DNA of 64,000 nucleotides from Eledone cirrhosa (Eukaryota), in assembly GCA_964016885.1 (NCBI GenBank), contig OZ024760.1, positions 11,408,001 to 11,472,000 of the forward strand. Direction: 5' to 3'. This document shows, piece by piece, positions 37,664-63,801 of this stretch. The translations under genes and the position numbers were made by a program. Under the pieces are notes generated by a model, which was not told the DNA's origin, ran no database searches, and saw only the letters and a program-made list of their open reading frames with translations. Within the stretch, counting starts at the first letter, position 1; the number at the start of each line of letters is the position of its first letter.

Positions 37664-37701
37664 GCCCTGATGAGTCCTTAATAGGACGAAACATTGTTGG
37701 C
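37664..37701 (+). ncRNA. Minimal type-I hammerhead ribozyme
   Basis: GCC-CTGATGA-GTCCT(TAAT)AGGAC-GAAA-C(ATT)G-T-T-GGC. Core intact, 5-bp stem II, 3-bp stem I, GUU triplet (possibly CpG decay of GUC). Confidence 0.75.
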
Positions 37702-37874
37702 TAATAAAAACTTTTGATGTATTGAAGGCTTCTTTGTTTTACTTTCATAATTCTTCGGCTCTGTTTAACTACATTGAGCTATACCTTTTACTGTCATTTC
37801 TATAATACAAAGAGGGTGTTTAACTCCAACACGCTCCAGTATTTTAACCCTTATATATATATATATATATATAT

Positions 37875-38041
37875 GTGAAGGCGTGTGGCTGAGTGGTTAG
37901 AGAATTGGATTCACAATCTTGAGATTGTGAGTTCGATTCCTGGACCAGGCGATGCGTTATGTCCTTGAGCAAGACACTTTATTTCACGTTGCTCCTTCTA
38001 CCTGGAGTTGCGACGGATAGATAGTATTAGCAATTGGAAAG
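37875..38041 (+). mobile_element. tRNA-derived SINE with CORE-like domain, copy 2
   Basis: As copy 1; both end at TGGAAAG. Confidence 0.85.
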
Positions 38042-39445
38042 ACCGACGAAAACATTGTTTCCTCGGTCCGATTTGACGAAAGTCGATCGACTCCTTTATA
38101 TATATATGTGTTCTTTTTTTTATCGTGCAATGGCCATACTCGATAACGAGGTTGCAGCCATCATATATATATGTGTATATATATATATATATATATATAT
38201 ATATATATATTTTAGGTCGGGTCTCCGGTAACTAAACCGGTAACCCCACCGAGCTTGCTTGCTTGCTGAGGAGGGTGAATTTGGACACCATGCGGGATGA
38301 AAAACAAAGCCCTTCAAAAGGGCAGAGGAACTCGGGAGAGTCAACGGCCATCCAAAAAGGTTCATTTTTAATTTTTTTTTTTTTTTCTGTGGCGCGAGAG
38401 ACTTTTAGTCTTCATTAAGACATCTCTCTGGAAGAAGGCCGCTCTGATATAAAACCTCCGACTTCGTTTGCAGCCAATGATGTAGACCAGTTCTTCTTTT
38501 GGGGCAAATGCATTCGATCTTCAAAGAGTGGGGTTGGCTTCGTGCAAAGCATTTCCTCACTTAAATAAAAGTTCAACTTCAGGCATCGCTTGATATGTGA
38601 CATTTCTTTTGGCAATGCGTGGTATTGCTGGCCATAGGGAAGCCCCTAGCAGGATTAAAAAGCCACGTCCGCGATGTTCATGCTTAATTATCAAGCGATG
38701 GCATTACTTGAAATCGCGTATCACGCACACGCACACGCACACGCACACACACACACACACACACACACACACACACGTGTATATGTAAGTATCATATACA
38801 TATATATGTATGTGTATATATATATATATAGAGAGAGAGAGATATTTACATATATTAATATATATATATATGTGTGTGTGAGAGAGTGTGTGTGTGCGTG
38901 TGTGTTTCTTTCGTGTGTAATTCATGCATAAAAACCCTTCCAAACACTCACTATAAAGCCTCTACCATATTAATACTCCTATCTAAAGCAAACAGTTTCA
39001 ATATGTTTATCACGTTTTTTCAAGATCTGTCAGTAGCGTCGCCGTACTTATTGCGTGAGATTGTCAGGCTGTCATCTCTGTATAATCCAGAAGTATGGGG
39101 ACGAGCAATGATTACTCTGATATAGAGCTTATATATATGTGTGTGTGTGTGTGTGTGTAGCTTGTGTGTGTGTGTGTGTAGCTTGTGTGTGTGTGTAGCT
39201 TGTGTGTCTAGCTTATGTTTGTGTGTGTGTCTACCTTATGTTTGTATGCGTGTGTGCAAGCATGCACATATCTGTGTAAACACACACGTAAGTATATATA
39301 TATATGTGTGTGTGTATATATATATATGTATGTATATATATATATATATATGTGTGTGTGTGTATATATATATATATATACGTAGGTTTATGTTTACATG
39401 TATACGTGCCTGTATGCAATGCACGTATACATGCATATATATACA

Positions 39446-39531
39446 TTTTCCTATTTCCCACTCTACTACCCTAAGTATTGAGTACTCTGGTGCGTTATGG
39501 TCCATCTGGTTCCTTACCACACTTCCTTCGT
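39446..39531 (+). mobile_element. Family A 3' tail fragment
   Basis: TTTTCCTATTTCCCACTCTACTACCCTAAGTATTGAGTAC...CCTTACCACACTTCCTTCGT. Confidence 0.75.
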
Positions 39532-39617
39532 ACATATATATATATATATATATATATATATATATATATATAATTCAATATATTAATAAATGGAAACTAT
39601 ATTTATAAAACCATAAT

Positions 39618-39682
39618 TATTTTATTATATATATTTCAAGGGCAACCAAGGCAGTCTTGGTGCGCTTTCATCAGATAAAATA
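39618..39682 (-). ncRNA. Type-I hammerhead ribozyme
   Basis: Minus strand TATTTTAT-CTGATGA-AAGCGCACCAAG(ACTGC)CTTGGTTGCCCTT-GAAA-TATATA-T-A-ATAAAATA. Perfect 8-bp stem I, intact core, palindromic stem III ATATATAT, AUA triplet. Confidence 0.85.
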
Positions 39683-60458: not shown

Positions 60459-60652
60459 TTTAATATAGAAATGGGTTCTACGGGACTAGAACTGTTTCAT
60501 TCAGGAGAAATCATCAGGAGGTTCCTGATGATTTCTCCTGAATGAAACATTTCTAGTCCCGTAGAAGCCAATTCTATATTAAATATTTTCACTCTGCTTT
60601 CTCTTGAGTACCTTACTTACTGTGGTTACACCCGATTGAACCCGGGATAAAC
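60459..60652 (+). mobile_element. Fold-back repeat family B, copy 2
   Basis: Imperfect palindrome centred ~60520. CTGATGA-TTTC-TCCT-GAAT-GAAAC at 60525. Tail shared with 20900-21087. Confidence 0.7.
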
Positions 60653-60833
60653 ATATATATATATATATATATATATATATATATATATATATATATATGT
60701 ATTTATTTATATTTATATAAAGAATTCGAAGTTTAAAAGCCACGACCAAATATACATTTCTCTAAAAACAATTTTTGATTTTGTCCTACCCCACCTCTCA
60801 ATTATTCTATTTCTTCTTTACTTTCTTACCCTT

Positions 60834-60868
60834 TCTTCCGATGAAGGTCTCGCGTCCAAAACGTTAAG
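60834..60868 (+). ncRNA. Degenerate minimal hammerhead-like motif
   Basis: CTT-CCGATGA-AGG...CC-AAAACGTT-AAG; both core boxes carry substitutions (CCGA for CTGA, AAAA for GAAA). Confidence 0.3.
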
Positions 60869-63125
60869 ACCCTTTCCCTGCTATTTCAAAAGCTTCGACT
60901 TTACTAAGCTTCCACTTGTGTATATATATATATATATATTTAGTTCGGATGTAGCTGTCGATCGAAACGGCCGGAGCTCAGCCGTCGGGGTCCTGACTCT
61001 TTTCCTATATACATATTTATATTTTTATATTTATATATGTGTATATATATATATATATATATATATATACGGGTGGGGCTGGGGGTAGGTGTAATGCATG
61101 TATGTGGTTAGAGATTTCAAAACAGTACGAGCGATATTGCATCATCGTGTGTTCGTGGATTTAGAATGCATGAACGATAAGTCTTGCTTCTCTAATACTA
61201 TCTTTGCACACACAATATGGCCGCCATCGACTTTATTGTGAGAGAAGCGTGTGTTTATATATATATATATATATATACTACTGACTGATACAAAAATGGA
61301 CGTGTTTAAAGCCCCATGTCACGTGAGACGCATGATTTGTCGTGAGTGTGTGTGTTTTTTTTCTTTCTACCATTGTTGCTGCTGTTGTTTTCATCGATGT
61401 TGCTGTAACTGACTTTATTTTGTTGTTGATGTTGTTGTTGTTGGTGTTATTGTTCTTTTTAGTGTAGTTGTAAATTTTGCTGTTGCTTTTGTCATAGTTG
61501 TTGTTGCAGCTGTTGTTGTTATAGCAGCTGTTGTTGTTGCAGTTGTTGTTGTTGGTGCAGTTGTTGCAGTTGTTGTTTATTATACATAACAATGGTGCAT
61601 GGTACCAAATATTCTTTCTAACTGTATCACGAACCAATAATAGACTCGAAGACCTGAAAGAATTATGTATGGATACGAATGTGTATATATATATATATAT
61701 ATATATATATATATATATATATATATATGTGCGTGTGTACATAAGTATATATATGTATATATATATGTTTATATATATATATATATTCATATATATGTGC
61801 GTGTGTACATAAGTATATATATGTATATATATATGTTTATATATATATATTCATATATATGTGCGTGTGTACATAAGTATATATATATATGTATATATAT
61901 GTTTATATATATATATTCATATATATGTGCGTGTGTTCATAAGTATATATAAGTATATATATGTCTATATGTTTATATATATATATTCATATATATGTGC
62001 GTGTGTACATATATATATATATATATATATATACTTATATATAGGAGCCGTTAAATGGTATTATCGTTTATTGTAATCGAAAAGTCTTCGTCCTGAAGTG
62101 ATAACAATAAGCGGCTTTACATGTAAGCAAGTTAACAATAACGGTGATAATGTTGAAAACGAGAGTAAAACCACGAGATAAAAACGAACGTTACGTAAAA
62201 AGATGAAAGAGCGAAAGGTCAAAATTGTAACTTTAGATATCTCAATGGAAAGGTCTCTCACCAGGCACCTAACATCCTCTCTCTTCATCTCTCGCTTATC
62301 TCCCCTTCGCTTCTCTCTCTATCTCTCTCTCTCTCTCTCTCTCTTACAGTCTATGTGAGTTTTATGTGCATTTATAATGTATCTGTATATATATGAATAC
62401 ACATATATATATATATATATATAAATATTATATATATATATTCAGGGATGTATGCAAATGTATATATTCTTACATATATATGTATATATATATAGATAGA
62501 TATATTATATTTTATATATTATATATATATATATATATAGAGAGAGAGAGAGAGAGAGAGAGAGAGGGGGGGGGGGGGGGGATATATTTTTATATATACA
62601 TATATATATACACAACGTTTTTATCCCTCTACCTTGGAATATATATACATATACATATATATATATATATATATATATATATATATATATATATTCGGAG
62701 GTAAAGAAATTTCGTTTATTTCATCCAATAATAAGAACATTAGCGATACATAACGACATGAGGTATTTCTTTAGATACGAGTAAAGGACTGTTATACTAT
62801 TGTGGCCCCTACCGACATTGTTATTTATTATCATATATATATATATATATATATATATATATACTTATTTATAGGAGTGTGTCTATGGAGGTGCACACGT
62901 AGATGTTTGCATATATATACATATACACATATATATATGTATATATATATATAGTAATAATAATAAATTTAAAGACTAAAATCCAAAGAGGGCTCTATAA
63001 GTGTCGTAGAGCAAATTTGATTCTTTGCTTAAACTTTAATCTGTTATTTTAATAAATATATGTATATAAGTATAGAATAAGTAAAAGCGAAGTAGTTTCA
63101 GATGTTCAAGTCCTTTAATAATACT

Positions 63126-63199
63126 GCTGTGATATATATTTCAATGACGACACTGGCCACACTGTTCTGTGTGCGAGTGTCGTGACATCATCAGACAGC
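63126..63199 (-). ncRNA. Type-I hammerhead ribozyme
   Basis: Minus strand GCTGT-CTGATGA-TGTCACGACACT...AGTGTCGTCATT-GAAA-TATATA-T-C-ACAGC. 5-bp stem I, intact core, 8-bp helix within stem II (U.U at its base), palindromic stem III, AUC triplet. Confidence 0.78.
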
Positions 63200-63674
63200 T
63201 TGTTACATAATAAGGTTATGTTTCCGAGGCAATCCAAGTTGAATCGACATGGGAACGGACGAAGTGTGTGCTTTTGGGTTCTTCATCCGTTCCCCTGTGA
63301 GTACCAATTCACCCCCACCGGTATGCGCAGGCGCATGTCCGAAGGAAGTTGACCATTAGCTACCGCAGATTTCAACGAAATTCCGCTTAGTCAGTTCACG
63401 CTCTCAGCCAAACAATGACTCATTTAGGCCTGTACCATAGTTTACTGCTACCCGTCCCGTCTGTGGCAGTCAGCCGAAAGCCAGAGGGGATGGGAGAGTG
63501 TTAGTTTTTAAAGGTTACAATACTACCTCTCACCAAGCATGGACGGTACGACTGACCATCAACTCCCAAGAGAAAATATACTTAATTCTAGGTATCATGG
63601 TTTTACATTGGAAGTTATGAGTGAGAGTTGGAAGTATATATAAATATATATATATATATATATATATTGGGGCA

Positions 63675-63801
63675 CCCACTGATGAATTATAGGAGCCCAC
63701 TTGAATATATATCTATTGATGGTATACAAGCTCCTACATAAATTGGTATAATTTCACCCAAATTGTAGGAATCCTATAATGAAACGAGACGTCCGTCTGG
63801 G
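63675..63801 (+). ncRNA. Type-I hammerhead ribozyme with a large branched stem II
   Basis: CCCA-CTGATGA-ATTATAGGA[77 nt incl. TCCTACA/TGTAGGA hairpin]TCCTATAAT-GAAA-CGAGACGTCCG-T-C-TGGG. Perfect 9-bp stem II, 4-bp stem I, near-palindromic stem III, GUC triplet. Confidence 0.85.

Follow-up and report, generated by a model that had tools for sequence, protein, structure and literature searches.

The hammerhead ribozymes closest to those described here belong to Penelope-like elements (PLEs) and to metazoan retrozymes. Those of PLEs are reported to have type-I topology with a minimal or palindromic stem III, to form many divergent families per genome, and to occur mostly as lone copies from truncated elements (PMC4209133, PMC3088659). 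A single minimal PLE hammerhead is reported not to cleave, and its dimers to show low cleavage (PMC4209133), a picture also drawn for such hammerheads in a review (PMC6765202). Metazoan retrozymes without long terminal repeats (non-LTR retrozymes) are described as tandem units of low GC content that encode no protein and contain one type-I hammerhead apiece. They are accompanied by dispersed monomers that are often intronic, as ~43% of the Xenopus copies are (PMC7229834; Li et al., bioRxiv 10.64898/2026.07.22.740005). Here, we analyzed a 64-kb stretch of the genome of Eledone cirrhosa (C21:11,408,001-11,472,000; assembly of 3.0 Gb), hereafter the window, in which an earlier note had described four complete hammerheads, A to D, inside one intron of a SCYL2-like gene. 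The analysis indicates that these motifs are very probably 3'-end passengers of four unrelated Penelope-type families, which inserted independently in (TA)n, and that as lone copies they would rarely cut the host pre-mRNA.

In A, B, C and D alike, the core boxes CUGANGA / GAAA / UH are intact and in type-I order, and the sequence around them allows all three stems to form. Hammerhead A has a stem I of 3 contiguous bp, a stem II of 5 bp, and a stem III (ACATTGT) that is self-complementary about one central base. Stem III reads ATATATAT in both B and C, and ACGAGACGTCCGT (13 nt, near-palindromic) in D, whereas stem I comprises 5 bp in C and 4 bp in D. The motifs and predicted cleavage positions proposed previously were recovered by a structural descriptor (A, B and D) and by direct reading (C). 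This descriptor, whose demands on stem III were limited to its two outer pairs, returned four motifs in the window, namely, A, B, D and a further one at 60525 on the + strand, and skipped C because of a U.U mismatch at the base of its stem II (10.1-11.1). A U10.1-U11.1 mismatch is reported to be still compatible with cleavage (PMC3088659), and axolotl HHR_Amex2 is a published example of such a variant (PMC7229834). As the earlier note claimed, the flanks are unrelated: the four elements share no homology there beyond chance-level words. Dinucleotide shuffling (150 tile-wise and 60 whole-window shuffles) gave no match in any of the 210 shuffles, and neither did the reversed sequence, as compared to four in the real window; 10 permuted cores gave a single match in total over 264 kb, compared to 18 with the real core. 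An Rfam scan of the window gave no hammerhead at the gathering thresholds; the best 150 of the 848 weaker matches, a list dominated by microsatellite-microRNA matches, did not contain one either. The missing gathering match weakens the Rfam label but leaves the motif call as it is.

The earlier assignment of these hammerheads to the Penelope/retrozyme type is borne out by the anatomy of families A to D and by a survey of stem III. First-look candidates numbered from 1,402 to 2,792 per family, with identities of 85-100% overall; the best copies were 99-100% identical in families A and D, 95-98% in C and ~85-90% in B. In families A, C and D, the 3' end is fixed and leads into (TA)n, the 5' ends are staggered, and partial copies in inverted orientation are frequent; a fixed 3' end with 5' truncation and inverted partial copies is described as PLE anatomy (PMC8557442). 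This arrangement of 3' and 5' ends was seen at 30 of 30 loci in both A and D. A 35-mer of A had 1,249 exact copies genome-wide, compared to none for the reversed control.

The window copy of family A is a 5'-truncated monomer of 362 bp. The full-length element measures 4.7 kb and carries a hammerhead in each terminal repeat (loci L153 and L154), on either side of a single frame in which a reverse transcriptase (RT) precedes a GIY-YIG domain; at locus L157, this frame is uninterrupted over 896 aa. One open reading frame (ORF) with this domain order, along with hammerhead-bearing pseudo-long terminal repeats (pseudo-LTRs), 5' truncation and inverted partial copies, is the anatomy of an endonuclease-containing (EN+) PLE. 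Pfam support is thin: the C-terminal piece matched GIY-YIG with an E value of 1.7e-4, just under the curated cut-off, and the whole 896-aa protein gave neither an RT nor a GIY-YIG match. Its atlas neighbors (0.96-0.98) carry GIY-YIG / HTH_animal families, and a PDB search with the protein returned 0 matches. Of its 231 homologues, the 120 listed were essentially without names. The protein contains the motifs RWR, DKT, YRDD and CxCX5C, as well as CxxC and CxH near its C terminus. Hydra-clade PLEs, among which is Hydra-1_Obim of Octopus bimaculoides (Craig et al. 2021, PMC8557442), are described with the same C-terminal GIY-YIG domain, DKT, CxCX5C linker, CxxC/CxH, pseudo-LTR hammerhead and (TA)n targets. 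They differ in having RWK instead of RWR and in being generally <3 kb, compared to 4.7 kb and 896 aa here. Judged by its sequence, family A is an autonomous PLE with Hydra-clade motifs. The window contained no PLE coding remnant; one was found at +126 kb.

No coding capacity was found in the units of families C and D, which repeat head to tail with periods of 1,298 and 707 bp and hold no ATG frame longer than 83 aa. Each unit has one type-I hammerhead, as in non-LTR retrozymes, and tandem D units were present at 4 of 30 loci. In contrast to the published retrozymes, with units of typically 150-450 bp and at most 972 bp (PMC7229834; bioRxiv 10.64898/2026.07.22.740005), the units of C and D are longer, their copies are mostly 5'-truncated monomers, and D has a stem II domain of 95 nt. 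At the loci of family B that were compared, 16 of 16 were fixed-length monomers with the same start point, and none contained a head-to-tail array. A classical retrozyme array was observed elsewhere (L118:5969-8047), with 311-bp units 99-100% identical, each carrying a hammerhead, arranged in two inverted blocks. In the window, C (-) and D (+) face each other head to head with 30 bp of (TA)n between them (63635-63666), so that one microsatellite received both insertions. Two loci (L156:158-1303 on the - strand and L019:2560-3141) share a PLE-like N-terminal coding remnant next to copies of family D; it is a candidate for the autonomous partner of D, or may reflect a shared target preference. 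Families C, D and a fifth one, E, have a short ATATTT-ACTC motif near the unit junction or 3' end, as does B on the strand opposite its hammerhead; this may be a shared signal for the Penelope machinery.

The descriptor was also applied to further samples. It found 14 motifs in the 200 kb downstream of the window and 28 in 10-kb samples from 40 evenly spaced sites. A further 38 lay in 800 kb of 11 other genes, for channels and kinases, between exons that encode domains; intragenic status there follows from exon order. Reversed controls gave 0 in every set. Against these backgrounds, the probability of at least four motifs in 64 kb was 0.49-0.96, depending on the background used. The notion of a cluster, put forward in the earlier note, does not hold, and neither a local cluster nor a belonging to the host gene is retained: the motifs represent four independent, young insertions at background density. 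The samples were clumped, with 8 of the 28 motifs from one tandem array. Density looked approximately fourfold lower on the four giant chromosomes C1-C4 (8 motifs in 240 kb) than on the other chromosomes (20 in 160 kb), again in a small, clumped sample. The pooled rate of 84 motifs in 1,464 kb corresponds to ~170,000 genome-wide, and a stratified estimate gave ~226,000 (bootstrap range, 99,000-390,000). The very large repertoire suggested earlier was thus confirmed by extrapolation from samples, at ~100,000-400,000 motifs. The 84 motifs fell into 38 stem I/stem III combinations. In comparison to the PLE hammerheads in the literature (PMC4209133, PMC3088659), G10.1-C11.1 occurs in a minority of the motifs found here, 15 of the 84, and the estimated count of ~10^5 compares with thousands in fish, frog and schistosome, although the descriptors differ.

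The survey of stem III revealed a perfect palindrome in 47 of the 59 stems of even length (6-10 nt) and in 14 of their 20 distinct sequences. In an alignment of B and a sister family (8 sequences), 99% of cells were paired, and two-sided changes, located in stems II and III, affected 5 of the 18 pairs. These compensatory changes include both inner pairs of the palindrome, and stem from few independent events. Palindromy of stem III is general and covarying, which fits the published dimer model.

The SCYL2-like exon shares a 70% match with SCY1-like protein 2 of a nemertean. Since it lies on the + strand with a GT donor, A and D have the sense orientation, in line with the two sense copies previously stated. 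Of the single intron proposed for the motifs, the donor side stands (the exon ends at 9359, and no other exon of the gene was located within the 64-kb window), but the acceptor exon was not located. Searches of the whole assembly, and of the window with a further 200 kb, did not recover the middle exons. An exon that is probably near-terminal was found at ~164 kb, counted from the start of the window, and 10 kb beyond an assembly gap; one intron of up to ~145 kb around the motifs is plausible. The gene is a second SCYL2-like paralogue, distinct from the separate one on C15, with middle exons that seem to be missing from the assembly. Of three contig runs compared with the exon for signs of expression, one gave cover, all of it unspliced. 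The exon closes a low-complexity open frame of 589 aa with repeated RRLS-type motifs (7755-9359, +), possibly a long N-terminal extension. Apart from this frame and fragments of a long interspersed nuclear element (LINE), the ORF listing of the whole window was uninformative.

Orientation was compared among genes. In the 11 other genes, 15 motifs were sense and 23 antisense (p=0.26; sense fraction, 0.24-0.57); counted by event, there were 9 sense-only, 17 antisense-only and 6 two-strand cases. The SCYL2-like span contained 11 sense and 5 antisense motifs, giving 26 versus 28 when pooled with the 11 genes. These data rule out a strong exclusion of sense copies and leave room for mild selection against them. 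Partners within the window were also considered. A and D have 0 stem I pairs between them, which makes strand exchange impossible, and a heterodimer of A with D was rejected; no second copy of either was found in 264 kb. B and C have stem III in common, but their stem I strands would form no more than 1-3 pairs with each other, and the two motifs are antisense. Like A and D, the intronic ribozymes of amniotes (the hepatitis delta virus-like ribozyme of CPEB3 and intronic hammerheads; PMC6765202) are intronic and sense, but they are described as ancient, low-copy and conserved, whereas the copies here are young, each in a family of thousands. Near-identical copies dispersed genome-wide set the hammerheads here apart from a conserved single-copy host ribozyme.

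Family membership, fixed 3' ends and background density, together with the 5' truncation and inversions of A, C and D, the tandem units of C and D, and the intact RT-GIY-YIG frame of A, are direct observations. Following the published model, two hammerheads in a tandem or full-length element would pair via the palindromic stem III, exchange stem I strands, and cut the transcript to unit length. The unit RNA, possibly circularized, would then be reverse-transcribed by a Penelope RT into (TA)n; as B, C and D encode no protein, they would borrow this enzyme. A lone truncated copy would lack a partner and be mostly idle, which would explain the persistence of sense copies. In zebrafish, a fast engineered intronic hammerhead is reported to lower expression up to 20-fold (PMC11856399), so the copies here are likely to be slow. 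The suggestion that a dimer requirement explains the tolerance of sense copies agrees with the lack of a significant antisense bias and of a partner in cis, and keeps the rank of an interpretation.

Several points weigh against this account. Its cleavage and expression steps are deduced from sequence and the published model, and the autonomous partner of B, C and D is postulated. Cleavage was reported for only 1 of 9 frog dimers (bioRxiv 10.64898/2026.07.22.740005). The 5' ends of copies fell within +1 to +10 of the cut site at 5 of 30 loci in D, mostly with TA-like microhomology, and at 1 of 30 in A; there is no convincing pile-up and thus no clear genomic footprint of cleavage in vivo. Furthermore, good cleavage as monomers is reported for the majority of those invertebrate retrozyme hammerheads whose stem III has 2 bp (PMC7229834), and by analogy B, C or D might do so too.

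The last point leads to an alternative that we consider unlikely but worth weighing, namely, that monomers cleave efficiently and sense copies persist since a cut midway along a very long intron does little harm or is outweighed by the rate of insertion. Apart from the invertebrate precedent, B, C and D can form a stem III of 2-3 bp with a closable loop, the mismatch of C is of the kind that still supports cleavage, and the trend of 15 sense versus 23 antisense motifs would allow mild selection. Yet palindromy is strict and survives sequence change, which monomer function would not need. Modeled active monomer folds were rare (1e-4 to 1e-7), which is weak evidence, given that tertiary contacts were ignored. 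The 20-fold loss of expression in zebrafish would lead one to expect a marked antisense bias, yet none was significant.

Very improbable, in our judgment, is a co-option by the host, in which RNA from tandem arrays of the same family would pair in trans with the sense copies and conditionally cut the SCYL2-like pre-mRNA. Trans cleavage has been reported for a schistosome hammerhead, and the idea was raised earlier for hammerheads of schistosome, newt and cricket (PMC2837043). The self-duplex of the D stem III is strong (-14.7 kcal/mol), tandem D units exist, and sense motifs prevail in the SCYL2-like span. However, A and D must be young, given their 99-100% identity to many dispersed copies, and with an ordinary density and a balanced pooled orientation the locus bears no distinguishing mark. 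Nothing at this locus supports the conditional cleavage in trans that had been envisaged. Chance matches in AT-rich, repetitive DNA, for which the Rfam result, the two stem IIIs made of TA repeats in a TA-rich genome and minimum-energy folds that differ from the active fold could be cited, can safely be dismissed for A to D: shuffled and reversed controls refute a chance origin, as do the position in the terminal repeats of an intact PLE (family A) and the covariation (B and its sister family). We thus retain the reading of the four motifs as 3'-end passengers of Penelope-type families.

Table 1. Hammerheads, the elements that carry them and other features of the window (positions in the window, 1 to 64,000)
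Feature	Position	Strand	Remarks
Hammerhead A	37664..37701	+	Type I; C3 37667, H17 37698; predicted cut after 37698
Hammerhead B	39618..39682	-	C3 39674, H17 39626; predicted cut after 39626; stem I 8 bp
Hammerhead C	63126..63199	-	C3 63194, H17 63131; predicted cut after 63131; direct reading
Hammerhead D	63675..63801	+	C3 63679, H17 63797; predicted cut after 63797; 95-nt stem II domain
Family A copy	37491..37852	+	5'-truncated 3' end (pseudo-LTR) of a GIY-YIG PLE with Hydra-clade motifs; ends in (TA)n
Family B element	39572..39841	-	Non-coding monomer of ~270 bp; fixed ends; (TA)n on flanks
Family C copy	63055..63635	-	5'-truncated (~580 bp), from a non-coding tandem unit of ~1,298 bp
Family D copy	63666..63987	+	5'-truncated (322 bp), from a non-coding tandem unit of ~707 bp; ends in (TA)n
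SCYL2-like coding exon, conserved part	9210..9359	+	GT donor at 9360; sets the sense strand
Decayed hammerhead	60834..60869	+	U4 and G12 altered; separate repeat family, core kept in other copies
Hammerhead-like sequence	24136..24219	-	Both core boxes; irregular stem III
Family E fold-back pair, head-to-head	60465..60577		Cores 60517- and 60525+; hairpin sequesters both cores
Family E copy	20959..21003	+	Stem I lost at inversion junction; absent from the earlier note
ATATTT-ACTC motif	39755-39790, 60575-60610; unit junctions of L149 and L019	+ (window sites)	TTGAGT box usually close

Two degenerate hammerheads had also been proposed in the window. That at 60834 departs from the type-I core at U4 and G12, and is indeed a decayed member of a family. 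The sequence at 24136 (-) has the core boxes but an irregular stem III, and had no homologue among the loci sampled in this analysis; it may be a decayed copy or a chance match. Three sites of family E had been missed (20959+, 60517- and 60525+). This family (20943-21003 and 60465-60577) is very abundant, with ~40 matches in 600 kb of samples, and has a stem III of 16 nt with 4 bp; it often forms a head-to-head fold-back with the catalytic core as pivot, in which the core is sequestered. Other repeats in the window include 3' fragments of a LINE-like RT frame at 35773-36396 (+) and 43103-44473 (-), which is possibly Tx1-like, and a long minisatellite (29016-30950) of ~33-bp units with open frames on both strands.

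The locus itself is ordinary transposon debris with motifs of a known kind, and its sole notable point is the estimated genome-wide load of ~70 motifs per Mb in a 3-Gb genome. Published absolute counts, obtained with descriptors other than the one used here, are 126,247 for axolotl, ~5,000 for mussel and ~9,000 for Xenopus, and the present estimate exceeds them. Our literature search found no hammerhead survey of cephalopod genomes; octopus and cephalopod queries gave the PLE-clade paper and a twister survey. A term search of a 2026 Octopus repeat annotation (PMC13282606) found no mention of ribozymes, and the 35 genomes in the main text of Li et al. (bioRxiv 10.64898/2026.07.22.740005) include no mollusc. 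If the genome holds ~10^5 hammerheads of dozens of families, at ~1 per 15 kb, and if these are dimer-dependent and under little strand selection in genes, one could speculate, as a long shot, about a family-addressed layer of conditional intron cleavage that is completed in trans by retrozyme RNA of the same family. If this were true, most long pre-mRNAs would hold half-ribozymes that can be completed in trans, genome-wide. Independently of this, the genome of E. cirrhosa is a good test bed for the role of PLE hammerheads in vivo and for the neutrality of lone intronic sense copies, with its young families, one intact Hydra-type PLE and retrozyme-like units of unusual length.

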